Below the pieces are notes generated by a model. The model was not told the origin of the DNA. It saw only the letters and a list, made by a program, of their open reading frames with translations, and did no database searches. The translations under genes were made by a program, and so were the position numbers. A stretch of DNA of 64,000 bases from Candidatus Kaiserbacteria bacterium (lineage in GTDB: Bacteria; Patescibacteriota; Minisyncoccia; Phycocordibacterales; Phycocordibacteraceae), in the NCBI GenBank assembly GCA_016217905.1, contig JACRFL010000013.1, positions 3,184 to 67,183 of the forward strand. The letters are read 5' to 3'. Each line of letters opens with the position of its first letter. Positions within the stretch are counted from its first letter, which is position 1. This document shows, in pieces, positions 616-63,173 of the stretch.

Positions 616-1791
616 GTGACGGTTATGAGCGTACTTTTTTGGGTGAATATTATCGCACTTCTCTTTTCCTTCTTCGTCGTTGGAGCTGTTCTCGGCGCGC
701 TCTTCTCCAAGCCGATACGCGATAAGCTCGCCGGCCTCTTGCGCCTCAAGGAGCTTCGACGCTTCCTTCTTCTCGACCGGTCTCTCCGCAATCCAATCCT
801 CAAGCCCGGGACGCACCCGTGGACGGCCGAGGCGGTCATGAATCCGGCAGCGGCCATCCTCGACGGTCGCACATATCTCATATATCGCGCTATCGGCATA
901 GACGGCGTCTCGCGGCTCGGTCACGCGAGCAGTCCAGATGGCATCGCCTTCGACCGGCGCCTTCCCTATCCGGTCTACGTCGCGAGGAATCCGCACAATC
1001 CCGCGACGCATCTGCGACGCTATTCTCCCGTTTTGTATCCCTCGGGCGGCAGCTGGGGCGGGTGCGAAGACCCGCGCATGGTGGTCATTGAGGGGCGCGT
1101 GTACGTTACATTCAATATGTTCGAGAATTGGAAACTCCGCGTTGCGGCCATAGAAATGGACGTGGATGACTTTCTCGCCGAGCGCTTTACCGCCTGGGAG
1201 GGGCCGACCATACTCTCGCATAGCGACCGGGACAAGAACTGGGTGCTCTTCCCCGAGAAGATCGGCGGGCAGTTCGCCGTCCTTCACAGCATCATCGGCG
1301 ACGATGAATATCACGTACGCATCGAATACGTTGACGACCTCGCAACCCTGGCCACGCGGAAGTTCGCGAGCCCCGACCCGCAGAGGGTCCCCGATACGCC
1401 CGTTGCGTGGCACGTCCACACGCGAAGCGCCGGACCGCCGCCCCTCAAGACCGAGAGGGGGTGGCTCGTCCTCTATCACGCCAACGACGCGAAAGAGGGA
1501 CACCGCTATAAGCTCGGCTCGATGCTCTTAGACCTCACTGAACCGACCAGGGTGCTCTATCGCTCTGCGGCGCCCATTCTCTCTCCGGATGAGCCGTACG
1601 AGAACCACGGCAAGCCCGGCATCGTCTACGCCTGCGGCGCGACCGTCCAGGGCGGAAAACTCTTTGTATACTATGGCGGGGCGGACAAGGTCATCTGCGT
1701 CGCGACCGCGCCGCTTGACGCCTTTCTTGACGCGCTCGTCGCGGGCAGCCAGCCCTCGCTCGCAGCGATGACGCCTGCGCGAACTATATAA
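616..1791 (+). CDS. Membrane-anchored GH130-family glycoside phosphorylase/hydrolase (start GTG 616 or ATG 625)
   Basis: N-terminal TM helix. GH130 hallmarks present: NPAAAILDGRTYLIYRAIG, GCEDPRMVVIEG, LFPEKIGGQFAVLHS, C-terminal VYYGGADKVICVATA. Confidence 0.75.
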   Translation: MTVMSVLFWVNIIALLFSFFVVGAVLGALFSKPIRDKLAGLLRLKELRRFLLLDRSLRNPILKPGTHPWTAEAVMNPAAAILDGRTYLIYRAIGIDGVSRLGHASSPDGIAFDRRLPYPVYVARNPHNPATHLRRYSPVLYPSGGSWGGCEDPRMVVIEGRVYVTFNMFENWKLRVAAIEMDVDDFLAERFTAWEGPTILSHSDRDKNWVLFPEKIGGQFAVLHSIIGDDEYHVRIEYVDDLATLATRKFASPDPQRVPDTPVAWHVHTRSAGPPPLKTERGWLVLYHANDAKEGHRYKLGSMLLDLTEPTRVLYRSAAPILSPDEPYENHGKPGIVYACGATVQGGKLFVYYGGADKVICVATAPLDAFLDALVAGSQPSLAAMTPARTI

Positions 1792-1793
1792 CC

Positions 1794-3710
1794 ATGTTCG
1801 TCATCCGCCGAGAGCCGCATAACCCGATCCTCGCGCCGCAGCGCGAGCGCCCGTGGGAGGCGCGCGCCACCTATAACCCTTCCGCCGTGCGTACCGAGGA
1901 TGGCGTACGCCTTTTCTATCGCGCATTCGGGGATCCGGACGCTCTCCAGACGCCCATGGCGGGGCTCTCGACTATCGGCACCGCCTTTGCCGAAGACGGC
2001 GTCCATTTCCATTCACGACAGCAGGTCATCGCTCCTGAGGAGCAGTGGGACATATTCGGCTGCGAGGATCCGCGCGTCACGTTCTTTGAGGGACGCTGGT
2101 ACTGCTTTTATACCGCGCTCGGCGGCTACCCTTTCGGCCCCGACAACATCAAGATCGCGGTCGCTATCGGGGATACGCCCGACAACTTTACCGAACGGCA
2201 CCTCATTACTCCCTTTAATGCAAAAGCGGCGACCCTGTTCCCCGAACGCATCGATGGCGATATCGTGTTACTCCTCACCGCGCACACCGATTGGACGAGC
2301 GAGCACCCGCGGCCGACGATCGCCCTTGCGCGCGCGAAACGGATGGAAGATTTCTTTGATCCAGACTATTGGAATCGGTGGCACGCAATACTCGCCGATC
2401 ATGCACTTCCTGAAATGCGCCGCGGTGATGATGATCATGTTGAAGTCGGCGCTTCTCCCCTTCTCACGCCGCACGGCTGGCTGCTCATCTACTCGTATAT
2501 CCAAAATTACTACGACGAACGCAAACGCATCTTTTCGATCGAAGCGGCGCTCCTCGATCGCGACGATCCACAAAAACTCATTTCGCGTACCGAATCAATA
2601 CTCGTGCCGCAGGAATTTTATGAAGCGTATGGCCTCGTGCCGAACATTGTCTTCCCCACAAGCGCGACGGTCGGTGAAGGCGGCCTCCTCGATATCTGGT
2701 ACGGCGCGGCCGACACCGTCTGCGCGAAGGCGAGCGTGAAGCTTCACGATCTCATGCGCGCGCTTGACCCCGATCGGCCGGCGCGCACTTTCATCCGCGC
2801 GCCGCAGAACCCTATTCTCACGGCGAGGGGAAAAGGCTTTGAAAGCAGAGATGTGTTTAATGCCGCCGCCATCGACCTTAACGGCTCGGTCTACATTCTC
2901 TATCGCGCTATGGATCAGGCGGACACCTCGACCATCGGACTCGCCGTCTCGTCTGACGGCATCGCCATTGACGAACGCTTATCCGAGCCGATATACGTGC
3001 CGCGCGCTGATTTCGAAGCGAAGCGCGGAAATCCTGCGGGCAATTCCGGCTGCGAGGATCCGCGCATCGTGCGCATCGGCGACATGCTCCACATGACTTA
3101 CACCGCCTACGATGGCGTCCACTCGCCCGCCGGCGCGATCTCGTAGATAAGCGTGAGTGACTTTCTTGCACGCCGATGGCAAATGTGGAGCGCGCCGTTT
3201 TTGCTGACGCCCGACAATGTCGACGACAAAGACCTTGCGCTCCTGCCTGAAAAAATCGGCGCAAACTATCTTCTCTATCATCGCGTGAACAATCAAATCT
3301 GCGCCGATCTCCTACCCGACCTCGCCTCGGGCAAGCGGGTGAGCCGCTGTATCGAGGTGATTGGCCCCAGGCGCGGCATGTGGGACGGAGAGAAGGTCGG
3401 CAGTGCAGCCCCTCCCCTCAAGATCGGAGACAAATGGTTGATGATCTATCACGGCGTCTCGCGCCACGCCACCTACCGTCTCGGTGCCGCGCTGCTTGGA
3501 GCGAATGGTACGACGGTTCTTGCGCGCACCGCCGATCCGATCTTCGAACCGCTTGAAGACTATGAAAAGAGGGGCGAGATTGCGAACGTCGTCTTCTCCT
3601 GCGGCGCTGTCGTTCGCGACGATATGCTCTTTCTCTACTACGGCGCCGCCGACAAGGTCATCGGCGTCGCGACCGCGTCGCTCGCGCACATTCTCGATGC
3701 GCTTTCATAA
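1794..3710 (+). CDS. Tandem double-GH130-domain protein interrupted by an in-frame TAG at 3144-3146 (ORFs 1794-3146 and 3153-3710 are one reading frame)
   Basis: Domain A (1794 to about 2760) is a complete GH130 unit (GCEDPRVTFFEG ... IWYGAADTVCAKAS). Domain B starts near 2780 (NPILTARG ... GCEDPRIVRIG ... TYTAY) and continues in the same frame after the TAG (LLPEKIGANYLLYHR ... LFLYYGAADKVIGVATA). The TAG falls in a variable position when aligned to the upstream paralog. Confidence 0.6.
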
Positions 3711-4453
3711 TGCCACCACTCGTCATTTTCGACCTTGACGGCACGCTCGCGGAAAGCAAGCAACCGATCACGAGCGAGATGGGGATGCTCGTTGCGAAAT
3801 TGCTCGACGTGACGCAGGTCGCGGTCGTCTCTGGCGGCGCGCTTTCCCAATTTTTGAAGCAGGTGGTGGCGAAGCTCCCTCCGGATGCGCGCCTTGAACA
3901 TTTATATCTTCTCCCGACATCTGGCGCCGCGCTCTACGAGTGGCGAGGCGACGCGTGGAGCAAAATATACGAGGAGCGTCTCTCCGAAACGGAAAAAGAA
4001 ACCATCGAGACAGCGATACGTGCGGCGGCGAAGGAGACCGGATGTATCGACTTCTCGAAAAGTGCGTGGGGCGAGCGCATCGAATATCGCGGCGGGCAGG
4101 TGACGCTCTCCGCGCTCGGCCAGCAGGCGCCGCTCGACGAGAAAAAGGCCTGGGACCCCGACCACTCGAAACGTCATGCACTCCACGCCGTGCTGAAAGA
4201 ACGGCTGCCTAACTTTTCGGTGGGCATCGGCGGCGCCACGAGCATCGACATCACAAAACGCGGCGTCGATAAGGCATACGGCATTCGAAAACTCTGCGAA
4301 CGTCTCGGTATTCCGGAATCCGAGGTGCTCTATATCGGCGACGAGCTTGCCTCCGGCGGCAATGACGAGGCGGTCTACAAAACGAACGTGCGTGCGGAAA
4401 ACGTCGGCGGCCCGTCCGATACCGAACGCCTTATCAAAAGCATGGTGAAATAA
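3710..4453 (+). CDS. Eukaryotic-type phosphomannomutase (PMM/Sec53 family, HAD-IIB)
   Basis: FDLDGTL nucleophile motif at the N-terminus. PMM-like blocks IEYRGGQVTLSALGQ, SVGIGGATSIDITKRGVDKAYGI, YIGDELASGGNDEAVY. The start overlaps the GH130 stop (TAATG). Confidence 0.7.
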   Translation: MPPLVIFDLDGTLAESKQPITSEMGMLVAKLLDVTQVAVVSGGALSQFLKQVVAKLPPDARLEHLYLLPTSGAALYEWRGDAWSKIYEERLSETEKETIETAIRAAAKETGCIDFSKSAWGERIEYRGGQVTLSALGQQAPLDEKKAWDPDHSKRHALHAVLKERLPNFSVGIGGATSIDITKRGVDKAYGIRKLCERLGIPESEVLYIGDELASGGNDEAVYKTNVRAENVGGPSDTERLIKSMVK

Positions 4454-4484: not shown

Positions 4485-6152
4485 CTATTGCGAGCGCATG
4501 AGCCGCACGAGGCGGATGGTTTCGAAGGAGTGGCGGCCGCCAAGAGCGTGGAAAACGGGCGAGAGGCGGTCGCCGCCCTCCGCAAAAAGCGTTTCGTGAA
4601 TCTCCTCAAGCGCGCCCTCCGACACGAGGTGAGCGAAATCCGCGCGCACGAGACGGCCGAGCTCGGCGAGCTCTTCGAGGTGCTTTACAATAGTCGAAGC
4701 GACGAGTCCGCGCGCTTTCGCCGCATCCTTCAGATTTTTTGCATCTCGCACTGCCTGCAGGGTTTCCGCCAATCTTCCCGGCAACCCTGTTTGGTTTTTG
4801 CTTACACCTTTCCCCTTGCCGCTTACGTCTTCAACCGACGCCCCTCCCATCGCTTTGACAAACTTTTTCTGCAGTGCGAGTTTTTCCATCTCGGGCATGT
4901 CTGCGAATGCGTCCCGCGCCGCCTCTGAGGCGGCGCGAAAATCCCTGTCTTTCTCAAGTATTTCCGGATGCACTTCAAGCGCGCGCTCGTTGAGTCCGGT
5001 GAGGTACACCCCCGCAAGCCGCCGCACCCGGGAAAGCGCGACGTACCCCTGTCCGTATTCAAATGCCCTCGAGAGATCCATGATGGCAGCGTCCATGCTC
5101 ATCCCCTGGCTCTTGTGGACCGTCATTGCATAGGAAAGACGCAGCGGTATCTGCGAGATGCTCGCCTTCACCTTCCCCTGCTCTTCGAGTTGCCATTCCA
5201 TCGGCTCGGTGGTGATCTTCACGCCATCTTTCGTCTTTACGATCGGCATCCCGTCCGTATCCCAGCCGGTCACGACGCCGAGAGTCCCGTTGACAAACTT
5301 CCCCTGCGGCGAGTTCTTGGTGAACATTACTGCCGCTCCCTCTTTCAATTCCAACACTTCGGGCGAGAGGCATCCGCGCTTGAGCCCATCCACAAGCGAA
5401 TCCTTCCCCTTCGAGCTCATGCGGAATTTCTTCGCCGTGCCCGGGAGCTTTGCGAGCTCCTCCGCATTGATGCGATCCACGTCCGCGTTATGCGAGAAGA
5501 GCTTCGGCGCGTTCGCGGGAACCGCCGAAGGGTCGGTGTGGTGCCGCATCAACTCCTCGTAGTGCGCCTCCTCGACCTCTCCCGAGCGTATCGCGGAGAG
5601 TACGCCGAGGAATTCGGTGTCGTCTTGCCGGTATTGCTCGGTGAGATAGCAGACGATCGGGTTGAGCTCGCGCCAGAGCTTCGACGCGAACGCGAACGCG
5701 ACTTCGCGGCCTCTTGAGACCGGCGGAAGCTGGAAGAAATCTCCGACGAGAATGGCCGTGAGACCGCCGAATGGCTTGTCCGTGCGTCGCACTTCTCGAC
5801 AGACCGTATCCGCCATCTCAAATGTCGAAGAAGAGAGCATTGAGATCTCCTCGATGATGAGCATCTTTGCTTTCTGGATGCGCCGCGCGACATGCTCTTT
5901 ACTGGCGATGCGGTCGACATCCGCGCGCGAGAGCGACTCCGCGACGCCGATGCCGCTCCAGGAGTGGAGCGTCATGCCCGCGACATGCGTCGCGGCGATG
6001 CCGGTCGCGGCGGTTACCGACGGATCGATACCCGAGGCGCGCAGCCATGCGATGAACTCGTTTATCGTGTGCGTCTTCCCGCTCCCGGGGCTCCCGGTGA
6101 GGTACACGTTCGCGCCGGTCTTCAGTATCGTGAGCGCTTCAGCTTGAGTCAT
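4485..6152 (-). CDS. PIF1/RecD-family ATP-dependent DNA helicase
   Basis: Walker A GSPGSGKTHTI, PIF1/AAA_30-like core, UvrD_C_2-like C-terminal part with helix-hairpin-helix tail. Confidence 0.75.
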   Translation of the reverse strand: MTQAEALTILKTGANVYLTGSPGSGKTHTINEFIAWLRASGIDPSVTAATGIAATHVAGMTLHSWSGIGVAESLSRADVDRIASKEHVARRIQKAKMLIIEEISMLSSSTFEMADTVCREVRRTDKPFGGLTAILVGDFFQLPPVSRGREVAFAFASKLWRELNPIVCYLTEQYRQDDTEFLGVLSAIRSGEVEEAHYEELMRHHTDPSAVPANAPKLFSHNADVDRINAEELAKLPGTAKKFRMSSKGKDSLVDGLKRGCLSPEVLELKEGAAVMFTKNSPQGKFVNGTLGVVTGWDTDGMPIVKTKDGVKITTEPMEWQLEEQGKVKASISQIPLRLSYAMTVHKSQGMSMDAAIMDLSRAFEYGQGYVALSRVRRLAGVYLTGLNERALEVHPEILEKDRDFRAASEAARDAFADMPEMEKLALQKKFVKAMGGASVEDVSGKGKGVSKNQTGLPGRLAETLQAVRDAKNLKDAAKARGLVASTIVKHLEELAELGRLVRADFAHLVSEGALEEIHETLFAEGGDRLSPVFHALGGRHSFETIRLVRLMRSQ

Positions 6153-6181
6153 CCGAATACTCTACCAGATGCGCGCGGATT

Positions 6182-6721
6182 TCAACGAATGCCGGTGTCG
6201 CAGGAAATGTTTGCTGCGACGTACCCGGTCGGAGGGACGGAGACATCGACTGGCAAACAGCGCGGGAGCGCCTTACCGCCTGACGGGGCCAGCGTGTAGG
6301 AACCGGGAGGAAGCGAAAAGTTGAACGTGCCGCTTGCATCCGAATTCCCGATGATAAACGGCAATTCCGAACCGGCGCGGTACACCGTTATTGCCGCCGC
6401 GTACGGCTTGTCGGCGCACGTATGGTCGGGCGGTATACGAGCGACCGGGCAGGTCGGCCCGAGCATAACCGTCCCGCGTACGCCGGAATTGTAGGGTAAG
6501 ATACCGACTCCGCCCGTGGTGCTTGCGGCGTCTGCCGTGGGACACGGGGCGAATTCACAGTTGGGGCCGGTGCGGCCTACCGAGGAGCCGTCGGGGCAAA
6601 TTTTGGCCTCCTGTGTGCATGCCCGCGGGCCGGGCGCATTCGCCACGCGCGCACCGATTGCCCAAAGAGCAAGAAGAACCGCTATCGCGACGATGCCAAT
6701 AACGAGCGCATACTTCCTCAT
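6182..6721 (-). CDS. Secreted Cys-containing hypothetical protein
   Basis: N-terminal signal/TM segment (MRKYALVIGIVAIAVLLALWAIGA) followed by a Cys/Pro/Gly-rich mature part. No recognisable family. Confidence 0.5.
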   Translation of the reverse strand: MRKYALVIGIVAIAVLLALWAIGARVANAPGPRACTQEAKICPDGSSVGRTGPNCEFAPCPTADAASTTGGVGILPYNSGVRGTVMLGPTCPVARIPPDHTCADKPYAAAITVYRAGSELPFIIGNSDASGTFNFSLPPGSYTLAPSGGKALPRCLPVDVSVPPTGYVAANISCDTGIR

Positions 6722-7045
6722 ACCCTAAGCATAGCAGGTTATTTCTGTACCTGGTGTTCAGAACAAAATACATTGACATTGATAGCTCGACGTGTTTGAA
6801 TGTGCCTAACGTCGTTTGTTCATTTTCATTTTGCAGCAGGTTACGACGTTTCCTGCGGGCAAAGGAGAAAGCCATGGAATCAAGCACACATGCAAGACTC
6901 ATCGTACCGCAGGTATACCGACCACGTGCGGGTGAGCGAGATCTTCACCTGACGACCGTTGCAGTTACATAGGGCTGCCCTATGTATTTTCTATGTATTT
7001 CAAATTGTGCATGCTCTCATTTCCCGATTTTTGATGTCCTAGTTT

Positions 7046-7477
7046 CTACCAAGTTTCTTTTGTCCTAAGATACGTCCGCACGATTTTGACTAGAGAAACG
7101 ATGACGAGAATGATGTAGAGGATGCCGATGACAAGAGCATCGAACGCGCCCGATACTGCGCCGCTGATGCCTATGCCCCCGCCGCCGCCCGCGTTTTGTA
7201 AAAAGAGCGTCACCGCGATAATCACCGGCACCCACCACCGTGCGAATCTCCACCACGCCTGGAAGACTTCGTCTTTCAGGCGATACGTGATGAGGGAGAA
7301 AATGAGAATTGGCACTAAAGGGAACACCGAGACAGCAACAATTTCGTAAGAATCATTGCAAAAAAACCAATTTTTCTGATAACAAGACAGGATTTGGTTC
7401 AAGATAGCCGGAAGAAATAACAAAATGCTTCCAACTATTCCCAGAAACAATACATTCTTTTTTGTATTCATAATCAA
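7046..7477 (-). CDS. Small integral membrane protein (hypothetical), in low-GC island
   Basis: Four predicted TM helices and a Gly run (GGGGGIGISG). Local GC is visibly lower than surrounding genes. Confidence 0.5.
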   Translation of the reverse strand: MIMNTKKNVLFLGIVGSILLFLPAILNQILSCYQKNWFFCNDSYEIVAVSVFPLVPILIFSLITYRLKDEVFQAWWRFARWWVPVIIAVTLFLQNAGGGGGIGISGAVSGAFDALVIGILYIILVIVSLVKIVRTYLRTKETW

Positions 7478-7482
7478 AAAAA

Positions 7483-10224
7483 TTAATAATTCACCTCGAT
7501 CTTCCCCTTATTAGTCGTAAGATCGATGACAGCTAATCCCGGTAAGATTTTCTTGATCTCTCTTTCACTCTTATCTTCTTCGCTCTTTACCTCTTCCTCA
7601 ATCCTTGTCACGTTCTTCTTCGCATCGTAATGACCCTCGATCTTCAGAGTGCCCACTGTTGTTTTTTCTTCAAGCTCTTTAATGGCTTCGGTTTTGTCTG
7701 TGGACCACTCATATTTTAACATCGTCTTAGGGAGCAGTTCCGCAGATATGCCGCTGTATCGGAGCTCTTGGATTTCCAATTTGAGTTCGTGTTTTCCTTG
7801 ATTGAGTTTCTTGAAGACGATCTGCAGTGTGTTGCCGGCTTCGTCGGCAATGGTGGTGCTCGTGGCTGTTGTTAGGACAGTGGTACTGGAGAGATTATCA
7901 GTCCCGATAATCTTAAATTTTTGCGATGCCGGATCGAAAGTCAGGACTGCTTCCGGCGGTGTGATGTCGAACACAATCGTCTTTCCGATTTCCGACTTGA
8001 ACGAGAAGTCGGTCGTGCCATTCCCATCATAGTCGAGAAGAAGAGGTGAGGCGTTTTGGAGGGTGCCGTCGATAAATGTCATAGTCGCTTTGGTGCTTGT
8101 TGCAGACGGGATGGCGGAGAGGGTGCTTGAGGCGATAATGGTATTGCTCCCGTCTATTTCTTGCATATCAAGCGTGAATGAGCCTGTGGCGTAGCCGTCA
8201 AGGTTGAGGGTGAGAGGAGTGTTCTTGGGAACGGTGATCACTTGAACTTCGCCGTAGCGCTTAAAGCGGCCGCCGGGGATGGTGGAAGTGGCAGCATTAA
8301 CGACGTTGCCGAGGTTATCGGTGGCAGAGAGATTGAGAGGCGAGTGGAGAAGGAAGCGGAGACGTTTGTCGGCAACTGCGTCGGTGGCAGGTTGGGTGGT
8401 GAAAATAAATGCCAGTGGTGTTGTTGAGGTGGAATTGGTGAGAATGTTTTGAACCAGCGTGCGGAGTTCGGGGATTTCGAGGATGTCGGCGTGCTTGCGC
8501 GGGACATTTCCATTAAGCCACCATTTATTATAATCCTCCAAATTCACCCAGTACTTCCCCGCTGTCGAAGCAGTCGTTGTCCACAGTGCGCTCGGAACGA
8601 GTACCGTGCCATCTCCTTCCACAACCTCTTTGGGGCTGTAGGTGATTGCCGGAGAGACGGTGCAGGTGCGCACATCTGACATATCACTGCAATACGTTTT
8701 CCTCCCTTCCTGGTATTCAATCGTCGCAAGGGTATCCTCTCCCCACCCGGCGATTTCGTAGAGCTGCACTCCCTGCGGAGGCGCCCACGTATCAAGAGCA
8801 TTATGAACCGCTTCCGCTTTGGAAAGAAGTACCGCATTCCCTACACTCGGGTAGATGAGGTCGCTTGGTGATGATGAAGCGAGACGTCACGCGTCGGCAA
8901 TGAAGTTTTTAAGTTGCGCTCCGTCATGAATCGTACTGCCATAACGCGCGCGGAATGCGGCGAGAAAATCTGAATCATCAAACTTCACGACCGGATTATC
9001 GACATAGGTGAAATAGTTTGCCGACGGGAGAAGGTTGTACGCACTTGGCATATTTGCTGTAAGCGTGCGAGCGGTTTCGGGAGAAAGGAAAACAGAAAGC
9101 CAATCCTTGGGCAATCCCTGTTCGTATCCGTGAAGAATCGCGCTAATCGCTTGCGGCGTTCCCGCCTGCGGCACGGCAATAAAAATGATCTTGTCGATGA
9201 GTTTGGCGGCTTCCGTATCGACGAGCTTCTGGATAAGCGCTTTGGTCATGAGTCCGCCGTTACTGTGCGCGACGATGGTCACCTTGCCCGTCTTCGAGCT
9301 TTTAGCCAGTCGGCGGAGCTCTTGACTGATATAGGGCGACGAAGTCGCCCTAAGGTCGCCGGAATAGTAGATGCGGCCGTCGGGAATGGGAACGGGCACC
9401 ACCAGACTCGTGGTAACGACGTGCCCGGATCCATCGTAGGCGGTGATGGTAATTTTAATTGAGGCGGCGATACTGAGAGCGTTCGACGGACTGTCGTTAA
9501 GAATAAATGGCACACGAGTGAATGAGCCATCGACCGAGGAAGCGATCGCTGTTGTGAGCAAATTTTTGCCATAGTCAATTCCACCGCTGGAACCAAAAAT
9601 CGGATTCCCTAGTGCGTCCCATAACGTTTCCCTGATCTGATATATGGTTAAAACGCTACCGGTGCCGTCCGATAACCCGCTCAAATACATAACGTCGCCT
9701 TTTTGGGGCGGCACGACTGAGAATGAAATGTCAGTGAGCGAAATCGTCGGCGGAACGTTGTCGATTATTATCTTCGTGCTACCCGTGGCAACATTCCCCA
9801 CCGCGTCAGTGGCTATCACCGAGATGGTCTTAAGACCATCGGGAACATCCGCACCGATAGTTAGCGGCCAGAATTTAAAAAAATAATCCGGGTAATAATC
9901 GGCACCATTGATATAAAAATGATACGGATTATTTCCCCCCGATAAAGGCGTAGTGGTCGGGCTTAAGAAACCTATCTGTGAAAGATCGGCTGAGATGGTC
10001 GGTACCCCTTGCCAGCTTTGCACGTTAATTGTAATCTGCTGGTTCGCGTCACCCGCTTTAAGTGTGGTTTGATACATTCCGTATCCCAAAGTCGAAATCA
10101 TCGGCAGGTCTCCAATTCTGACTTGAGCCACGTACAGTGGTGAACTCGCCTGAACTAAGGACGGAAAAATAAAAAACACGAGCGAAAAGAAAAACGGCCA
10201 AAAAACTTGTGCACGGGTGTGCAT
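7483..10224 (-). CDS. Giant secreted alpha/beta-hydrolase (lipase/PGAP1-like) domain protein; ORFs 8887-10224 and 7483-8769 are joined in frame across a TGA at 8887-8889
   Basis: N-terminal signal peptide (MHTRAQVFWPFFFSLVFFIFPSLVQASS). Lipase-type nucleophile elbow VTIVAHSNGGLMTKAL. The frame is continuous from the TGA to the downstream ORF (…FIADA*RLASSSPSDLIYPSVGNAVLL…GVQLYEIAGW…) with no independent ATG or RBS for the second ORF. Atypically low GC. Confidence 0.55.
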
Positions 10225-10273
10225 CGTATCTAATGTAGCACCAATACTCGTGGAACGAGTATACTATGCACAT

Positions 10274-11965
10274 ATGACAAAAGACGAATTGAAAAACGCG
10301 CTTGCGGGTGTCCTGCAAGGGGAAGTATCGAATGATGCGGTGGCGCTTGAGAAAGCGAGCCGCGACACCTCCCTCTTCGAGCGAATGCCGAAGCTGGTAG
10401 TGTATCCAAAAGATGCCAAGGACGTGAGCGCGGCGGTGAGAGAGGTAGCCCGCGCCCGCTCCGCGGGCGCGGATGTATCGCTTGCGGCGCGCGCGGGCGG
10501 GACCGATATGTCGGGCGGCCCCTTGACCACTAGCATCGTGGTTTCCTTCACCAAACACATGAATCATGTACTCGAGGTTTCCTCCAACTTGGAGGCCCGG
10601 CCTCCAAGTGAAGGATATGCGGTGACGGAACCGGGGGTTTATTATAGGGATTTTGAAAAGGCGACGCTTGAAAAAGGCTTCATACTTCCCTCTTATCCCG
10701 CCAGCCGCGAGATAGCCGCCATGGGCGGCATCGTCGCGAACAATTCCGGCGGCGAGCGCACGCTCAAGTACGGCCAGACGGAGCGGTACGTCGAGGAACT
10801 GGAGGTCGTGCTCTCTGACGGTTCGCAAGTTACGTTCAAAGCGTTGACACCTGCGGAATTGGAGGAAAAAAAGAAACTTCAGACGCTTGAAGGCGCCATC
10901 TACCGCGAGATGGACGCGCTTATCACCGACAATGCCGGGCTCATCGAGGGGCGCCGGCCGCGCGTGTCGAAGAATTCCGCCGGCTACGCGCTCTGGAGCG
11001 TACTTGATGCGAAAACCGGCACCTTCAATCTCGCGAAGCTGATCTGCGGCTCCCAGGGGACGCTCGCCCTCTGGACGAAGGCGGAGCTCTCCCTCGTGAA
11101 GCCGAAAGGGCACCGCGCGATGCTCGTCGCCTTCCTCTACGACCTTTCCGACCTCCCCGAAATAGTAAAGCGCGTGCTCGCGCAGGGCCCGGAATCTTTC
11201 GAATCTTATGACGACCACACCTTCACGCTTGCGGTGAAATTCATTCCCGAGATGCTTTCGCAGATGGGCTTGTTTAAGGCCGCGCGGCTCGGCATCGACT
11301 TCATCAGCGAAGCGGCAATGGTCGCCACCGGCGGCGTGCCGAAGCTCATCTTGATGGCGGAATTCGCCGAGGACACTATCGAGGAAGCCGATCGGAAGGC
11401 GCTTCTCGCGAAGGAAGCGCTCGCCGACCTTCATCTTCATACCAAAATAGAGAAGGATGAGAAAGAGTCGGAGAAGTATTGGATCGTCCGACGCGAGAGC
11501 TTCTCGCTCCTGCGCAAGAACGTTCACGGGCTCCACACCGCGCCTTTCATCGACGATTTCGTCGTTCCGCCTTCGAGCTATCCCGACTTCCTGCCGAAAC
11601 TGAACGCGCTTCTCGAGGAATACTCATCGCACTTCATCTACACGATCGCGGGACACATCGGCAACGGCAACTTCCACATCATTCCGCTCATGGATCTCAC
11701 GAAGGAGGAGAACCGACAAGTCATCCTCGACCTTGCGCCCCGAGTCTACGAACTCGTCACCCGAGAGGGTGGCACGACGACCGGCGAGCACAACGACGGC
11801 ATCATCCGCACGCCGTACCTCAAGCTGGTTTTCGGCGCGGAAATGGTCGCGCTCTTCGAGCGGACGAAAAAAATCTTCGATCCTTTGAATATTTTCAACC
11901 CCGGGAAGAAAGTCGGCGGCACGTTTGCTGACATCGAGCGGGACATGATTAAGACGGCACCGTAA
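10274..11965 (+). CDS. FAD-linked oxidase (GlcD / D-lactate dehydrogenase-like, PCMH-type FAD-binding domain) carrying an in-frame palindromic insertion
   Basis: FAD-binding PCMH-type N-terminal domain and FAD-oxidase C-terminal domain (HGLHTAPFID, GEHNDGIIRTPYL). ATG at 10274 (MTKDELKNAL) is preferred over the tracker start 10217. Confidence 0.75.
   Translation: MTKDELKNALAGVLQGEVSNDAVALEKASRDTSLFERMPKLVVYPKDAKDVSAAVREVARARSAGADVSLAARAGGTDMSGGPLTTSIVVSFTKHMNHVLEVSSNLEARPPSEGYAVTEPGVYYRDFEKATLEKGFILPSYPASREIAAMGGIVANNSGGERTLKYGQTERYVEELEVVLSDGSQVTFKALTPAELEEKKKLQTLEGAIYREMDALITDNAGLIEGRRPRVSKNSAGYALWSVLDAKTGTFNLAKLICGSQGTLALWTKAELSLVKPKGHRAMLVAFLYDLSDLPEIVKRVLAQGPESFESYDDHTFTLAVKFIPEMLSQMGLFKAARLGIDFISEAAMVATGGVPKLILMAEFAEDTIEEADRKALLAKEALADLHLHTKIEKDEKESEKYWIVRRESFSLLRKNVHGLHTAPFIDDFVVPPSSYPDFLPKLNALLEEYSSHFIYTIAGHIGNGNFHIIPLMDLTKEENRQVILDLAPRVYELVTREGGTTTGEHNDGIIRTPYLKLVFGAEMVALFERTKKIFDPLNIFNPGKKVGGTFADIERDMIKTAP
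10584..10610. repeat. Palindromic element family A copy (CCAACTTGGAGGCCCGGCCTCCAAGTG), in frame inside the FAD-oxidase CDS
   Basis: Stem of 10 bp (ACTTGGAGGC / GCCTCCAAGT) with a 3-nt loop. Encodes SNLEARPPSE. The same sequence recurs at 38450 and 42379. Confidence 0.8.
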
Positions 11966-12010
11966 AAAAGGCGCCTCGCGCGAGGCGCCCTTGCGGAAAG
12001 GACCAGGAAA

Positions 12011-12430
12011 TCATCTGGCCCACTTCGCTAACTGGAGTTCGGCGGACAATCGCGCGCCGCGGTCGTTCCGGGCTGAGAAGGGCAGGTGCAGATGGTCGTA
12101 CCGCTCCCCAACATCGGCCACGATCGGCGGTCTATACACCCGCATATCGAACCAGTACTTGAACAATTCGCCGGTCGGCTGTGACTCGTCGATTTTGTCC
12201 AGCTCGCAATTTTCGCACGCGCCGGAGTTGATCGGAAACGGGCAATCCCGACACCCTGTTGGTTCAGCCGCAATGCCGCAGACTGTCGACTCGGTGTCTA
12301 GCTCGTTCGGGTCAGGCGCCGCGTCCGCGTGATGCGCGGGAAGACGTAGAGCGGCCCATCGGACGATTCCCTTCACTGCTTTGGCTCGAGCTGCAGCCTC
12401 TTCTTCTCTGAACGGTAAGTAACGAGGCAT
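12011..12430 (-). CDS. Hypothetical Cys-rich protein (possible zinc ribbon)
   Basis: ATG at 12430 preceded by AAAAGGGGAAATATC (RBS-like). Motifs CGIAAEPTGCRDC ... CENCELD. The tracker N-terminal extension was rejected. Confidence 0.5.
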   Translation of the reverse strand: MPRYLPFREEEAAARAKAVKGIVRWAALRLPAHHADAAPDPNELDTESTVCGIAAEPTGCRDCPFPINSGACENCELDKIDESQPTGELFKYWFDMRVYRPPIVADVGERYDHLHLPFSARNDRGARLSAELQLAKWAR

Positions 12431-12721
12431 GATATTTCCCCTTTTTTGCGAAAGTTTTTGAAAGATCAATCTCCTTGCCGGAAGTCGCACGCCGGAGGCG
12501 CTTGACTTATGGCACTTTTATACTACAACGTTTCCCGAATAACAGCAAGTGCTCTTTGGGGATAGCCGCCCCGCGGACGGCTTTGCCGTCCGCGGGAACT
12601 CTGCTATATTCCCTTGATGAAGCGCGCCCTCGCCGTCACTATCGTCGTCCTCTTGGCGCTTGGCATGCTCGGGATGTTCTTCCCCGCCCTCGTCTCCGGC
12701 AGACTCTGATTTTGTCCGGAG

Positions 12722-12964
12722 CTATTCCGGATCGCGTGAATAGCGAATCCAGGCGAGCCATGCAAGCAATCCCGCGAGAATCACGGAAAGCGGAATAACA
12801 ATGCATTCATTCCGGAAGATAAGCGCATAGGCGAGCGCGAGGAGGATGCCTCCGATGAGGAACAGCGCCCTCTTCAATCGGTACTCGCGAGGCGGCATAC
12901 TCTCCGCATAACCGCGCCATACGCTGATCAGCATCCATGCCACCAGGAGGCCGACGAGTACCAT
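12722..12964 (-). CDS. Small membrane protein (hypothetical)
   Basis: 80 aa, three hydrophobic helices. Confidence 0.45.
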   Translation of the reverse strand: MVLVGLLVAWMLISVWRGYAESMPPREYRLKRALFLIGGILLALAYALIFRNECIVIPLSVILAGLLAWLAWIRYSRDPE

Positions 12965-13146
12965 GAGCGGAATGAGAAGGCAATCGAACGATGCGGAGAA
13001 TTCGAAGAAACCGGGCGGCAGGCCAAGAAGTGCGGCGGCCGCGAGCGTGCCCCCCGCTTCTCCCGCGGTCTCCCCGCTTGAGGTCGCTTGCGCGCCCTTC
13101 GCGCCCCCTTCAGTCGGAGTCTGAAGCGCGACATTCCCCCCGCCTT

Positions 13147-14133
13147 CTATCGTTTTGCCGCCTCCGGAGGAAGACCCGGGAGCGGGCGTCGAACCGCCCC
13201 CACTGGACTGTTCGTCGAACCGCCTGCTTGCGCCAACAAGGGCACCGTGAACCGGCGCTCAACGCTTATCGTCGGCGGCGAGGCCCGAGAGATGACGCGG
13301 TATACGTACGTCTCTCCCGGCGTCAGACCGGTGAGTAAGAAAGAATGATTCGTTACTTTCGTCGTGTCTTCGGGAGTGGCGAACGGGTAGCCAAAATTCG
13401 GAGGTATCAGGACCAGAGCGTAGGGGCCGCCGGAGACCGGGCCATAGACGACCTGGCTGGTCGAGAGAAGATTTGTTTCCCACGTTATCGTGGCTAGTCC
13501 GGACTGGCCCACGTTCGATATGTCGAGGGCTTTTTCGTTGAATATGAAGAGACTGTTCCCAATCGATCCCCCGCCTCCTCCTCCGCCAGAACCAAGAATA
13601 GTCCCACCGCCCGGCGGCGTTCCACCTCCTCCGCCGCCTTCGCCTCCTACGACCGTGTTGCCGCAGCGGGTGGTACCCCCGTTGAACCCGACGCATACGT
13701 CGAAGCCGAGCGTCTTTCCTTGATACGAATTATCGCTTGAATCGATGAAGGAAACGTTGTACGTGAACGTCTTTGATTCTCCGTTTCCAATCGCACCGAG
13801 AGGGACTTCACCGGCGGTCGAGAGGAAATTCGCAAGAGAGTCGTCGAAGAGTGTTCCGCTGTTCCCGGTTATAGAGAGATGCAGAAGGGCGCTGAAGTTG
13901 CCGGCATCAAAAACATTAATGGCTTCGGTCAAGACGTTTTGTGTCGCGCCGGAATTATTGGTGACCGTAACGGTGCCGGCCGTCGAGTCGAGCGGAAGAA
14001 AATTCGATTTGTTGAACAGCGGATCCGGGACGAACTGGACGCCAAGCGGCGCCTGTGCCAAGGCAACGCCGGCGAAGCCCGTCAGAGAGAGGGCGACGAC
14101 CGGCAGTATCGAGATTTTAAGAAAGTTCTTCAT
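13147..14133 (-). CDS. Secreted Gly-rich protein with C-terminal FN3-like domain (true start at MKNFLK; tracker Arg-rich extension rejected)
   Basis: Signal peptide MKNFLKISILPVVALSLTGFAGVALAQA. Poly-Gly linkers GGEGGGGGGTPPGGGTILGSGGGGGGGS. C-terminal beta-sandwich-like block (ATITWETN ... LTPGETYVYRV). The start lies 4 nt after the stop of the upstream LTD gene. Confidence 0.65.
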   Translation of the reverse strand: MKNFLKISILPVVALSLTGFAGVALAQAPLGVQFVPDPLFNKSNFLPLDSTAGTVTVTNNSGATQNVLTEAINVFDAGNFSALLHLSITGNSGTLFDDSLANFLSTAGEVPLGAIGNGESKTFTYNVSFIDSSDNSYQGKTLGFDVCVGFNGGTTRCGNTVVGGEGGGGGGTPPGGGTILGSGGGGGGGSIGNSLFIFNEKALDISNVGQSGLATITWETNLLSTSQVVYGPVSGGPYALVLIPPNFGYPFATPEDTTKVTNHSFLLTGLTPGETYVYRVISRASPPTISVERRFTVPLLAQAGGSTNSPVGAVRRPLPGLPPEAAKR

Positions 14134-14137
14134 ACGT

Positions 14138-16135
14138 TTATTCGGCCGGGGTCGCCTCCGTCGGAGCGCTCTCGACAACTGCCGGAGCGCTCTCCGCCAC
14201 CACTGCCGCCGGCTCCGCTGGAGCGACTGCGGGCTCGGGGATGGCTGGCTCGACCGGCGTTTCCACGGCCGCTTCCGGCTCCGGAGAGAGAATGTCCTCT
14301 TCACGTGTGACGGCCGGCTCGACCGCCGCCGGCTGATCGGGAGCGGCCGTCTCCGCGGGAGCGGTCTCTTGAGACGTTCCCTCTGTCGAGATAGTCGTTT
14401 CAGACGCCACGATCTCGGTCTCCTCGGACGCACCTTCCTCGACCGGCAGCGGCGCCACGACGTTCTCCGGCCCGATGAAGAGGGGGAACGGATCATAGAT
14501 TCGGCCGCTCACGCTGCCAGAATTGAGCATCGGATTTTCCGGACCGATGGCGACGAGATGGATCCAGATGTAGCCGAGGAATCCGGACGGCACCGTCCAG
14601 GTAAACGCGCCGTCGTTTCCAGTAGTTTCGACTATCGTGTGCGTCGTGTCACCCAGACTTATTTTTCCGTCGTGGTTTACGTCCTTCACGTAGTAGATGC
14701 CGATGTCGAGGTCGCCGTCGGGGCCGTTGTTATTCGTCGCCGTCCACTTGATCTCGTAACTGTGCGTCCAGTACCACGTGTACGAGCCTCCCTCGTCCGG
14801 GTAGACGAGATCGATCGAAGGCGGCACGAGTTCTTTCCAATCGGAGGGCGCGTCGGTGTCGTAACCGGAAGGTACTCGAGCAAGGACGTTGCCCTCGGCG
14901 ACATTTGCCGCCCCGGGATCCCAGACGTTCGGATTGTAATTCGTCCATCCGGTGTCGGGGGTGCCCCAGTTCATCTGGTCGACGATAATCCTGTCGGGAC
15001 GTTTGAGGACAAGCATGTCGGCGTCGTTATCCAAACCGCCCCCGATTTTCGAATGTATGTTGATTTCGGTCACCTCGCTCGGCAGATACCAGTACGCGGG
15101 CAGGCCGCTCGAAACGGTCGTTGAGGTGGCGGTGGTTGACGTGGCAACGATGACCGCATATTTCTGCGCGGGAATGAGGAGTGTCGTCGGCAGGGTGTCA
15201 CACGAGGTGTTGTCGCAAATCTGCCATCCGGAAATATCCAAAGGCACGTTTGTCTGATTGTAGATCTCCACCCATTCGTTCGTACCCTCCGCACCGCGCT
15301 CCGGCGTTTTCACGTTGTAGTAGATCTTGTTGATCCGGAATCCCCACGAAGCGAGATGGTTTTTTACTTTTTCCGTATCGTTAAATCCGCCACCCTCGTA
15401 GCTCGGGTAGTCGTGCCGCGTTTGCCAGCCGTTGTAATCGATGTCGAAGTCGCAGGTGCGGTTTTGGAGATTGCTGGTCCCCGCCGTGTAGGCGAATTCC
15501 CACGGGTCGAGCGCGGTTGTCGTGGCGGTGAGGAGCCCCGTAAGAGGACCGTGATACATCTGGGTGCCCCCGCGCGTCGCGGTAACGTCAAGCCCCGAGC
15601 AGAAATCGGCATCGCCGGTAAAGTTGGTCGAGGTGGCGAAGTATTGAAACGGATTGCTCGCTTGCGGGTCGATCGCAACCGTCTTTTTCGTAACATCTCC
15701 GGGCGGCATCGACACGGCCGTACTCGTCGCCTGCCAGCCGGAAGTTGTCAGCGAGAAATCGACCGAACCCGCCCGGAAGGCATTCTCGGTCGAGCTCTCG
15801 ATATCGTTGTAGTATCCCCTTGTACTGCCGAGGCCGGTGATGCCGACGCTGTTAAGGCCGATCATGAGCGTGACGGCGAGCGCTTTAAGCGACAGCCGCG
15901 GCGTCGCCCTTATAAAAAACGGAGAGAGGACGCTCTTGCGCCTGTTCGCCCGCGCCGCGCGCGGCGCGCACGCGGCGCGCGGGCGCAGATCGAGCACATG
16001 CGCAGACGACGCGACGCGACGCGCCTTCCTCCTGGCGACCCTTCTCACCGGCACGGAAACACGCGCAGCGACAGTCGCTTTTTCTTTTTTCCGGGGAGTC
16101 TTCTTTATCGCTCCCGTTTTAATATGTACCGCCAT
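14138..16135 (-). CDS. Lamin-tail-domain (LTD) protein with SipW-cognate-like signal region and Pro/Glu/Ala-rich C-terminal tail (start uncertain: 16135 or internal MIGLNS)
   Basis: N-terminal K/R-rich segment then TM (LKALAVTLMIGLNSVGITGLG). This is followed by GYYNDIESSTENAFRAGSVDFSLT, resembling the TasA/camelysin SipW-cognate motif. LTD signature GTNEWVEIYNQTNVPLDISGWQI ... IPAQKYAVIVA. C-terminal low-complexity PEPEAAVETPVEPAIPEPAVAPAEPAAV. Confidence 0.65.
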   Translation of the reverse strand: MAVHIKTGAIKKTPRKKEKATVAARVSVPVRRVARRKARRVASSAHVLDLRPRAACAPRAARANRRKSVLSPFFIRATPRLSLKALAVTLMIGLNSVGITGLGSTRGYYNDIESSTENAFRAGSVDFSLTTSGWQATSTAVSMPPGDVTKKTVAIDPQASNPFQYFATSTNFTGDADFCSGLDVTATRGGTQMYHGPLTGLLTATTTALDPWEFAYTAGTSNLQNRTCDFDIDYNGWQTRHDYPSYEGGGFNDTEKVKNHLASWGFRINKIYYNVKTPERGAEGTNEWVEIYNQTNVPLDISGWQICDNTSCDTLPTTLLIPAQKYAVIVATSTTATSTTVSSGLPAYWYLPSEVTEINIHSKIGGGLDNDADMLVLKRPDRIIVDQMNWGTPDTGWTNYNPNVWDPGAANVAEGNVLARVPSGYDTDAPSDWKELVPPSIDLVYPDEGGSYTWYWTHSYEIKWTATNNNGPDGDLDIGIYYVKDVNHDGKISLGDTTHTIVETTGNDGAFTWTVPSGFLGYIWIHLVAIGPENPMLNSGSVSGRIYDPFPLFIGPENVVAPLPVEEGASEETEIVASETTISTEGTSQETAPAETAAPDQPAAVEPAVTREEDILSPEPEAAVETPVEPAIPEPAVAPAEPAAVVAESAPAVVESAPTEATPAE

Positions 16136-16158
16136 ATATCGGTGTGGAGGTCAGACCT

Positions 16159-16704
16159 TCATAGCGCGGCAGAATCACCGAGAGGATCTTCTCCTTTCGG
16201 CCGCTTCATCTTCCGCACCTCCCTCCGGATATTCTGCGCTTCGTCGAAGACGACGATGACAGCCGGCACGCCGATGAGAAGAACGAATCCGAACGGCTTT
16301 TTCGCGAAGTCGAGCAGGTAGCCGAGATACGGGACCGAGAAGAGCACCTTCCCGATTACCTCGCTTTGCCGCACCAGCTGCGGATCGGAATCTTCGTTCG
16401 CGTCTCCCTTCGTCGTGTAGTAGAAGACGCCGCCCCTCACCTCGTCAGAGACGATGCGATGGGTCGTCGGGACTTGCGTCTTCGTGTCCGGCCCGAACAT
16501 GATGACGTCTCCCACCGCGTACTTCCCGAGAGGCTTGACCACCGTGAGCGCGCCCGTCTTGATGGTCGGCTCCATTGAGCCCGACTGAACTATTTTCACC
16601 TCGATATTCCCCGGTATCGGCACCAGGCTCACCACGAGGAGCGCGCCAAGCGCAAGGACGGCGCCGACGAGGACGTAATATGCGGTTTTGAAGAGTGTGT
16701 GCAT
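16159..16704 (-). CDS. sipW: Signal peptidase I, SipW/archaeal-eukaryotic type (S26B)
   Basis: N-terminal TM then SGSMEPTIKTGALTVV catalytic-Ser block typical of SipW/Sec11-type peptidases. Sits between the TasA-like genes and the LTD gene. Confidence 0.8.
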   Translation of the reverse strand: MHTLFKTAYYVLVGAVLALGALLVVSLVPIPGNIEVKIVQSGSMEPTIKTGALTVVKPLGKYAVGDVIMFGPDTKTQVPTTHRIVSDEVRGGVFYYTTKGDANEDSDPQLVRQSEVIGKVLFSVPYLGYLLDFAKKPFGFVLLIGVPAVIVVFDEAQNIRREVRKMKRPKGEDPLGDSAAL

Positions 16705-16798
16705 GCGTGGCTCCGCTCGAGCCCCGGCTCTTCCGCGCCGCGAACATGCGGCGCGGAACCTGCCGATACTCGAGCGCTACTCGGTCAAGAGAGATCTC

Positions 16799-18127: not shown

Positions 18128-18148
18128 GTTCTTTTGTTAGGCTGGTGA

Positions 18149-18973: not shown

Positions 18974-19092
18974 AACGTATTCTTTGTTTACGCACCTTCT
19001 AAATAGGTGTCTGCAAACACGAATAGAGCGCGTTCGCACCCGCAGACGCCCCGTCTGCAACTGCCATAAGTAGATACCTCCCTAAGATCAAA

Positions 19093-19106
19093 GTCAACTT
19101 GTTGAC
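19093..19106. promoter_or_regulatory. Perfect 14-nt palindrome GTCAACTTGTTGAC in the divergent intergenic region between the TasA-like operon and the RRM gene (candidate operator)
   Basis: Seen directly. Shares the CAACTTG end-motif with palindromic family A. Confidence 0.35.
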
Positions 19107-19299
19107 AAGAACAAGAAATGCAATGCAATCATGGAGGCCGGACCTCCGCTAGAGACGGGCGACACTATCCCCACCCACACTTGCGCCTCCAGGACATTTC
19201 TGGCATACTGCGGGCACTCGCAGAGTATTCGAGCTTCGCTCGGCCGCTTGCGGCCGCAAGTGTTCAGTTTCGGCGAGGTTAACCGGTTAGACCCACCAC

Positions 19300-55991: not shown

Positions 55992-58543
<2,552 letters not shown>

Positions 58544-63172: not shown

Positions 63173-63173
63173 G

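Follow-up and report, generated by a model that had tools for sequence, protein, structure and literature searches.

A probable recent pseudogene of an LCAT/LPLA2-type lipase/acyltransferase in a Kaiserbacteria genome

A large gene that GenBank annotates as two hypothetical proteins is probably a recently decayed copy of a known enzyme family, most likely the inactivated remnant (pseudogene) of a lipase/acyltransferase common among CPR bacteria, rather than a case of stop-codon recoding or part of a freshly imported island. It lies on the minus strand of the window, by which we mean the whole stretch of 64,000 nucleotides analysed. The region to which it belongs appears to be a two-gene operon typical of the CPR bacteria Paceibacteria/Kaiserbacteria. 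The first gene would encode a large exported protein with a signal-like N-terminus, a variable Ig-like N-terminal module (N-module), an alpha/beta-hydrolase of LCAT/LPLA2 type whose triad is Ser-Asp-His, and C-terminal beta-sandwich domains; the second would encode a small four-helix membrane protein, the putative membrane partner of the enzyme. The first gene has a premature stop at codon 446 of 913 and a deletion that constitutes a second, independent disabling lesion. The stop could have arisen by a single G-to-A change that turned TGG (Trp446) into TGA, which would cut the serine nucleophile off from the aspartate and histidine of the triad. The deletion would be an in-frame loss of about 122 codons, with a Pro-Asp microhomology on either side, that cost the catalytic domain its first third, VLFLPG loop and family-invariant PYDWR motif included.

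The whole disrupted gene occupies positions 7483..10224 (minus strand), from an ATG at 10224-10222 through 913 codons to a TAA at 7485-7483, and is predicted to specify a surface or secreted lipase/acyltransferase of the LCAT/LPLA2 family. Its parts, from the N- to the C-terminus, are a signal-peptide-like segment, an Ig-like N-module, a truncated catalytic domain and beta-rich C-terminal domains. The frame is open for 445 codons, meets the TGA at codon 446 (8887..8889, minus strand, in the context GCG TGA CGT) and is then open for another 467 codons, so that the TGA is the sole interruption. The upstream open reading frame (8890..10224, minus strand, 445 aa) corresponds to the hypothetical protein MBI5405902.1 (HY972_02605) and contains the signal-like segment (residues 1-26), a Big_13-like N-module (residues ~27-279) and the nucleophile elbow AHSNGG. 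The downstream open frame (7483..8886, minus strand, 467 codons and the TAA) encodes the remainder of the catalytic domain and the C-terminal beta-sandwich region. Upstream of the GTG at 8769 it lacks a usable start; this GTG is the first in-frame start past the TGA, 39 codons on, and has a GGGAG merely 1-2 nt ahead of it; the first ATG lies further on still. An earlier note on this DNA had described a frame of about 910 aa that continues through the TGA into an ORF with no ATG or ribosome-binding site of its own. The 913-codon frame bears out the first part of that description, and the second is fair, with the GTG 39 codons in and the GGGAG too near to it. The note also called the protein secreted, and to this extent the N-terminus agrees: a single hydrophobic stretch (residues 6-24) precedes VQA/SS, a signal-peptide-like arrangement.

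Several observations tie the two halves together. We found 983 homologues (about 1000), all in Patescibacteria, and the 120 best of them, when inspected for this feature, were without exception single polypeptides of 700-1500 aa aligned across the TGA junction. The residues of the predicted catalytic triad are Ser321 in AHSNGG (codon 9262..9264, minus strand), Asp538 in GDGTV (8611..8613, minus strand) and His578 in RKHADIL (8491..8493, minus strand). All three are invariant in 40 aligned sequences, and the TGA parts the serine, which precedes it, from the aspartate and histidine, which follow it. Since the homologues are unsplit and the triad straddles the stop, the two ORFs are, as judged from sequence comparison, one gene. 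The Pfam LCAT family (PF02450) matches residues 308-545 of the joined protein, crossing codon 446, with a score of 48.6 bits as compared to 40.9 bits for the N-terminal half alone (gathering cut-off 21); the downstream half alone matches no Pfam family. The match covers profile positions 116-355 of 392 in the window gene and 43-389 in intact homologues. The alpha/beta-hydrolase assignment and the AHSNGG elbow of the earlier note are thereby upheld, but its comparison with PGAP1 is not, LCAT being the best Pfam model and PGAP1 a sub-threshold match.

The relationship to LCAT and LPLA2 of known structure was drawn from the fold of the syntenic orthologue, P0008, and not from the window protein itself. 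The AlphaFold model of P0008 has a mean pLDDT of 77, and its catalytic domain is mostly above 85. In a Foldseek comparison with the PDB, the 12 best matches of this model were all LPLA2 or LCAT, with E values of 1e-9 to 2e-5, target-normalised TM scores of 0.57-0.67 and sequence identities of just 13-16%. Searches of the PDB with phmmer (query P0008) and with a family profile yielded no significant match, so that fold comparison was needed to establish the link. The bacterial proteins thus resemble LCAT/LPLA2 (PF02450; PDB 4X90-4X97, 5BV7, 4XWG) in Pfam match, nucleophile elbow, Ser-Asp-His triad and, for P0008, predicted fold. They differ in length, which is two to three times greater, in an exported Ig-like or beta-helix module at the N-terminus, in about 300 residues of C-terminal beta-sandwich domains, and in having a small membrane partner protein. 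The window copy differs further: its catalytic domain has lost its first third, and it has a premature stop. Nearer relatives are the Patescibacteria proteins that NCBI names "Lipase/acyltransferase domain-containing protein" (for example P0025 and P0046; PF24096 = DUF7379), of which hundreds are 70-78% identical to the window protein over residues 280-913. The window gene has the same operon partner as these proteins, and its architecture is that of P0001, the closest full-length homologue; whereas the relatives listed are uninterrupted and keep VLFLPG..PYDWR, in the window copy 122 residues are deleted and a stop replaces W446.

The deletion is apparent from alignment with P0001, which takes in the whole of both proteins (70% identity) and has one gap only, of 122 residues (P0001 residues 275-396). 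The junction, VPVPIP/DGRIYY, lies in frame at 9382..9390 (minus strand). The lost segment bears PPDPC, SNVLFLPG.EASRLY, WEP and PYDWRLS, and it was not found in any frame of the window. It is present in 39 of 39 aligned homologues, in which W224, E225, P226, Y289, D290, W291 and R292 are invariant; in total the deletion removes 11 invariant and at least 12 near-invariant positions of the family. A complete alpha/beta-hydrolase core, with the N-terminal strands, the (V/F)LxPG loop and PYDWR, is therefore absent from the window gene. The VLFLPG loop is presumably the counterpart of the oxyanion-hole loop of LPLA2/LCAT. In the DNA of orthologues both edges of the deletion carry a CCN-GAY (Pro-Asp) microhomology. 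The proteins that share the N-module all go on with PPDPC..VLFLPG..YDWR. Recombination between paralogues, giving a chimera, was considered as the origin of the junction and rejected: P0001 has the same N-module together with a full, intact catalytic domain, and a simple internal deletion therefore suffices.

Both lesions are real in the data, since Logan contigs are identical to the GenBank sequence and GenBank itself carries the 445-aa product. Two Logan contigs from run SRR12113407 (L020 and L001) cover positions 4924-10723 (5.8 kb) at 100% identity, with the TGA and the deletion junction included. The Logan assembly and the GenBank MAG possibly share reads and are thus not fully independent. 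The earlier note had counted a further in-frame stop in the window, and one does exist: a TGA at 58097-58099 in pheS, which GenBank also has as a split gene. At this codon, where homologues have K, Q or R, a Logan contig of the same run reads AGA (Arg), the only difference in 3185 bp. The pheS TGA was accordingly not taken as solid support for recoding, the Logan codon falling in the residue class of the homologues.

The pheS discrepancy is also one reason to consider that the TGA of the large gene might be an artefact of consensus or population, that is, sample-specific, a minority allele, or an error of assembly or polishing, with an intact TGG allele coexisting. A break of the Logan contigs within the large gene, at 8045-8064, is a second, hinting at graph branching. 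Against this, the GenBank MAG and the Logan contig both have the TGA and the deletion junction and agree fully over 5.8 kb, albeit with reads that may be shared, and we regard an artefact as unlikely.

The TGA is best read as a lesion, acting as an ordinary stop, and not as recoding. In orthologues the codon at this site is TGG (Trp) at 6 loci, CGC (Arg) at 6 loci and GCC at 1 locus; P0001 and P0008 both have Trp, and homologues have W, R or S but no Cys. The occurrence of TGG provides a one-step route to TGA. Elsewhere in the window TGA is a regular terminator, ending 14 of the 41 confident ORFs; rpoB, rpoC and dnaE end in it, and so does pheS; rpoB, rpoC and dnaE contain no in-frame TGA over ~3300 codons. 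Scans of codon usage in all frames revealed no interrupted gene besides pheS and the LCAT-like gene, the other cases being neighbours that share a frame. There were no stops in the LCAT genes of 17 other related loci, at the TGA site or elsewhere, and a degenerate pattern of the TGA site had 0 matches in JGI metagenomes. The sequence that follows the TGA forms no stable structure (fold z = +0.44), and has no SECIS-like element and no Rfam match. Neither a tRNA gene nor prfB is among the genes examined in the 64-kb window. The read-through or recoding that the earlier note implied is not supported, given the TGA stops of rpoB, rpoC and dnaE, the TGG and CGC codons of orthologues and the loss of 122 residues of the core.

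We considered reassignment or special decoding of UGA, by code 4 (Trp), code 25 (Gly) or as selenocysteine, to be scarcely credible. Like genes in such systems, the large gene has an in-frame TGA in a conserved sequence, with a Trp codon in the closest relatives. There are two in-frame TGAs in about 55 genes of this MAG, and code 25 is used by some CPR lineages, namely Gracilibacteria and Absconditabacteria. In those recoding systems, unlike here, TGA is not a regular terminator; the present event is moreover confined to one MAG, and the homologues have Trp or Arg, not Cys or Gly. Genome-wide reassignment was ruled out by stop usage in rpoB, rpoC and dnaE, and selenocysteine by the absence of a SECIS element and of Cys in homologues. 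That the pheS site is AGA in the other assembly also weighs against reassignment.

Leaky read-through is a less drastic alternative. The UGA would be read some of the time, most simply by tRNA-Trp, and the resulting protein of ~100 kDa would still function, perhaps in a non-catalytic surface or adhesion role. Termination at UGA is weak when C comes next, and tRNA-Trp, reading UGA as a near-cognate codon, would put back the ancestral residue; with an ancestral TGG, insertion of Trp returns the wild type. The 467 intact downstream codons, the lack of clear rate acceleration and the in-frame TGA in the essential pheS of the same MAG are also consistent with it. Opposed to these points are the use of TGA as a working stop in rpoB, rpoC, dnaE and pheS, the AGA at the pheS site in the Logan assembly, the lack of a recoding structure, and the lack of any other population with TGA at the site among JGI metagenomes and the 17 related loci. 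Furthermore, with the catalytic core deleted, read-through would not rescue enzyme activity. On balance we think read-through improbable. An extension of it, which we consider very doubtful, is that the population tolerates in-frame UGA by leaky termination, with near-cognate insertion of Trp or Arg restoring the residues of the LCAT-like gene (TGG) and pheS (AGA). If that were true, a CPR lineage that does not belong to the code-25 groups would be in an early, ambiguous phase of UGA reassignment, of which the two in-frame TGAs within 64 kb, including that of the essential pheS, would be the trace.

The region is poor in GC. Positions 6722-10224 have a GC content of 0.493, as compared to 0.586 elsewhere in the window, which places them in the lowest 0.4% of windows of the same size; the sole rival low-GC region in the window is at 60.3-64 kb. 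A difference from the surrounding DNA, as proposed in the earlier note, is thus evident, but the flanks have 58-62% GC and not the roughly 65% that the note gave them. Set against 30 housekeeping genes with Pfam support, the large gene has z scores of -2.9 for GC and -2.6 for GC3, and the small membrane gene a z score of -4.5 for GC. Such values, 2.6-4.5 sd under the housekeeping genes, could be explained if the LCAT-like gene and the small membrane gene formed an island recently acquired by horizontal transfer. The N-module (GC 0.485) gives this idea some substance. It is the sole part of the gene that differs from the syntenic orthologue, where it has no counterpart, and it is 63% identical to the N-module of P0001, which implies that at least the N-module has been exchanged and leaves room for module exchange within the gene.

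The wider context argues against recent acquisition of the gene pair. Two related loci (L002 and L008) hold it at the same position with the same neighbours, an FAD oxidase on one side and a 179-aa protein and a PIF1 helicase on the other. Identities to orthologues, 65-85%, are on a par with those of neighbouring genes, and housekeeping proteins of the syntenic relative are 74-79% identical. The orthologues in L002 and L003 are likewise GC-poor relative to their own flanks, and GC is just as low in other genes for surface proteins in the window. At the boundaries of the region there is no tRNA gene and no integrase or transposase, and flanking repeats are only short and chance-like. Low GC is long-standing in this gene family, as it is in other genes for surface proteins of this genome, and does not betray a recent import. 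The earlier note's horizontally acquired cargo finds no backing in this evidence, and we consider acquisition of the whole pair quite unlikely.

Inactivation, which we favor, must be reconciled with the otherwise healthy appearance of the gene. Past the TGA 467 codons are open, no invariant residue outside the lesions has been lost, the rate of change in the window lineage is not clearly accelerated relative to intact orthologues, and the partner gene is intact. These facts suggest that the lesions are very recent, or that a product is still made. The deletion is in frame, which makes a non-catalytic (adhesin-like) role possible, and the gene may retain such a role.

The finding in the window matters little in itself, and no case for stop-codon recoding or for an imported island should be built on it. 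The intact family, with its roughly one thousand exported members in Patescibacteria, its LPLA2/LCAT fold, its swappable N-terminal module and the four-helix protein encoded next to it, is possibly more useful. To judge only by fold and family, the intact relatives are most likely cell-surface phospholipases A or acyltransferases that act on foreign (host) membrane lipids. To our knowledge, CPR bacteria are unable to make their own fatty acids or phospholipids. A full-text literature search that combined LCAT, phospholipase and host-lipid terms with CPR names returned no paper tying LCAT to CPR bacteria. Taken with their lipid dependence, this makes the LCAT-like operon a concrete, testable candidate for a host-lipid harvesting system of CPR bacteria.

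The small membrane protein of the operon (7046..7477, minus strand; likely start ATG 7471, 141 aa) has four hydrophobic segments, in keeping with the polytopic membrane protein of the earlier note, and matches no Pfam family. Its gene begins 5-11 nt past the stop of the large gene, and in all related loci that continue beyond the 3' end of the LCAT-like gene a homologue follows immediately. Beyond it is the AT-rich non-coding stretch that the note had put at about 320 nt. It measures 324 nt (6722..7045), has a GC content of 0.448, and is otherwise an ordinary intergenic region with no Rfam family; it takes in the sequence ahead of the next gene (6182-6721, minus strand). Only the ~25 nt adjoining the start of that gene can be aligned to the syntenic relative. 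Within the same 324 nt, a perfect 9-bp hairpin at 6966-6986 resembles a terminator.

The LCAT-like frame, on the minus strand, opens with an ATG at 10224, runs for 445 codons to a TGA at 8887-8889, and continues for 467 codons to a TAA at 7485-7483. It is open across the TGA, as the earlier note had read it, and the downstream ORF has no ATG of its own at its head: the first in-frame start past the TGA is a GTG 39 codons downstream, abutted by a purine-rich stretch, and the first ATG lies still further on. GenBank holds the upstream ORF as a 445-aa hypothetical protein (MBI5405902.1). Two Logan contigs from run SRR12113407 together span 4924-10723; they are 100% identical to the window there and carry the TGA. 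These contigs end and overlap by 20 nt at 8045-8064, inside the C-terminal half of the LCAT-like gene; the break hints that the assembly graph branches here, and hence that strains vary within the gene.

The two ORFs are one gene. The joined sequence matched 983 homologues, all from Patescibacteria where the source is named (Paceibacteria, Kaiserbacteria, Yonathbacteria, Minisyncoccota). Each of the 120 that were listed is a single protein of 700-1500 aa, as expected of the single polypeptide proposed earlier, and the best of these have 70-78% identity to query residues 280-913, junction included. With the N-terminal half alone, the Pfam LCAT model (PF02450) aligns to residues 308-404; with the C-terminal half alone it has no match, and on the joined sequence the match extends over residues 308-545. 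Ser321 (AHSNGG), Asp538 (GDGTV) and His578 (RKHADIL) are invariant in a 40-sequence alignment, and the TGA parts the nucleophile, Ser321, from the other two. The catalytic domain is confident in the AlphaFold model of the syntenic orthologue, P0008, and the 12 best PDB matches to this model are all lysosomal phospholipase A2 (LPLA2) or LCAT (E values 1e-9 to 2e-5, target-normalised TM 0.57-0.67), which with the LCAT match bears out the alpha/beta-hydrolase call. A search of the PDB by sequence only gave nothing significant.

Directly 3' of the enzyme gene lies a small gene (7046-7471/7477, minus strand) whose product has four hydrophobic segments and is the small polytopic membrane protein recognized earlier. 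Wherever a related locus continues beyond the 3' end of the LCAT-like gene, a homologue of the small gene lies no more than tens of bases from the LCAT-like stop, and this holds even for enzymes of only 37-45% identity. The small protein matched no Pfam family; its 175 homologues are all from CPR bacteria where named. Some genomes carry extra tandem copies of the small gene (for example L012, CAZJZB010000015.1, at 1113-3962) and at least one Kaiserbacteria MAG has two LCAT-like paralogues (L009 and L016), indicating that the cassette duplicates. The 324-nt spacer that follows is an ordinary intergenic region, with a perfect 9-bp hairpin at 6966-6986 and only about 25 nt conserved in the syntenic relative, adjoining the following gene. 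The equivalent of this spacer (6722-7045) in the related locus L002, at 13222-13554, holds an 18-bp perfect palindrome and an apparent short reading frame whose peptide would be highly basic (MATNPPPGPGRRGQVKKRD...); the window conserves neither.

The TGA in the LCAT-like gene is a lesion and not a recoded codon. TGA terminates rpoB, rpoC, dnaE and pheS, and 14 of the 41 confident ORFs; rpoB, rpoC and dnaE contain no internal TGA, and codon-usage scans found only pheS as a further interrupted gene. At the TGA codon, orthologue DNA has TGG in six loci (the syntenic L002 and L008 among them), CGC in six and GCC in one, and TGG to TGA is one transition. The gene has no internal stop in any of 17 related loci, Cys never occupies the site in homologues, and a degenerate DNA pattern demanding TGA there found nothing in JGI metagenomes. 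The RNA 3' of the TGA is no more stably folded than shuffled sequence (z = +0.44), and Rfam had no match anywhere in the window. In a Minisyncoccia MAG (JBAQCU010000020.1), the alignment to the LCAT-like gene at 5533-7412 falls into two parts, 5533-6192 and 6150-7412, which overlap and lie in different frames. A frameshift may have occurred there, and decay in this family may then not be confined to the window.

The essential gene pheS (57809-58540, minus strand) has a TGA at 58097-58099, ahead of the catalytic motif(s), and is annotated in GenBank as two fragments. The earlier note's second in-frame stop thus exists in the MAG but not in the Logan assembly, where a contig from SRR12113407 matches the window at all but one of 3185 bp; its codon is AGA (Arg), and its PheS is intact at 244 aa. 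Homologues have K, Q or R at this site. The TGA is thus a minority allele or a MAG error and gives recoding no support.

The enzyme gene has also suffered a deletion. Every BLAST match starts at window residue 280, and the LCAT model begins about 70 profile positions earlier in intact homologues than in the window protein. No frame of the window encodes the conserved segment PPDPC..SNVLFLPG.EASRLY..WEP..PYDWRLS. When the N-terminal 282 residues were searched against the whole library, the proteins found to share the Ig-like N-terminal module all ran on into this segment. P0001 (1028 aa), the top-ranking homologue, shares this module at 63% identity. Its end-to-end alignment with the window protein is 70% identical and has a single gap, where 122 residues are gone from the window protein after residue 279. 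Lost with them are 11 invariant and at least 12 near-invariant family positions; in the P0008 model the stretch supplies strands 200-204, 210-216, 219-222, 248-253 and 284-286 and helices 230-235, 266-277 and 295-300 of the hydrolase core. Pro-Asp CCN-GAY microhomology at both edges, seen in orthologue DNA, is consistent with simple slippage or illegitimate recombination. The junction is present in the Logan contig and in the GenBank protein. Population polymorphism is one of the two main residual alternatives to inactivation.

All other invariant residues are kept in the remaining LCAT-like sequence, which has not clearly diverged more than intact orthologues have. Either the two lesions are young, then, or the product is still of some use; low-level read-through, yielding a non-catalytic surface protein, is the other main alternative. 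We consider it probable that the region is a conserved Paceibacteria operon for an exported enzyme of LPLA2/LCAT fold and its small membrane partner, and that a nonsense mutation, together with an in-frame deletion in the catalytic core, has inactivated the enzyme gene in this genome. Judged by fold and family, the intact proteins would be surface phospholipases or acyltransferases acting on host lipids; a literature search found no description of their function.

The AT-richness noticed earlier is real: GC is 0.493 at 6722-10224 versus 0.586 in the remaining window, within the lowest 0.4% of same-size windows and matched only at 60.3-64 kb, though the flanks measure 58-62% GC and not the roughly 65% claimed. 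Against 30 Pfam-supported housekeeping genes, the LCAT-like gene has z = -2.9 for GC and -2.6 for GC3, and the small gene z = -4.5 for GC. The neighbourhood is ordinary chromosome (rpoB, rpoC, dnaG, rpoD, dnaE, SMC, RNase III, pheST, HisRS, sortase and several surface-protein genes).

The region is not a recent island, and the idea of horizontally acquired cargo found no support in the comparison with relatives. Gene order in L002, a 173-kb ENA contig, is as in the window (RNase H-like, HisRS, bPH_2, MTS methyltransferase, RRM, FAD oxidase, LCAT-like, small membrane protein, 179-aa-protein orthologue and, further on, PIF1 helicase). Protein identities to L002 are 85% for LCAT-like residues 281-445, 71% for 447-913 and 65% for the small protein, comparable to those of the neighbours (PIF1 and FAD oxidase 79%, HisRS 74%, 179-aa protein 66%), so divergence has kept step with them. 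In L002 and the non-syntenic L003, too, GC and GC3 are lower in the LCAT-like gene, and above all in the small gene, than in the flanks, and no tRNA, integrase or meaningful flanking repeat was found at the region. Surface-protein genes at 16.8-19 kb (Peptidase_M73-like) and 60.6-63.2 kb (Big_13/cohesin) are equally GC-poor. The latter stretch lies in a second strongly GC-poor block, 60612-63857 (minus strand), where GC falls as low as 0.44 and the products are Big_13/cohesin-domain and unannotated proteins; the block fits the pattern of GC-poor surface-protein genes in this genome.

The N-terminal module is the sole part with a different history, having no counterpart in the syntenic orthologue and being present in P0001 and others. 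N-termini vary across the family (Ig-like, parallel beta-helix, DNRLRE and others), which points to module exchange. Between the FAD oxidase and RRM genes, about 7.3 kb (11966-19299) is absent in L002, where the two genes sit 325 nt apart; its six minus-strand ORFs are of secreted or surface type (an LTD domain, a purple-acid-phosphatase N domain, two Peptidase_M73/camelysin-like), and a variable island is more plausible here than at the LCAT-like region. At 616-3710 (plus strand) three GH130 (mannoside phosphorylase) ORFs stand in succession, the first matching the model from position 85 only and the third (3153-3710, 185 aa) its C-terminal half only (155-318 of 320); they may be further gene fragments or remnants of a tandem duplication.
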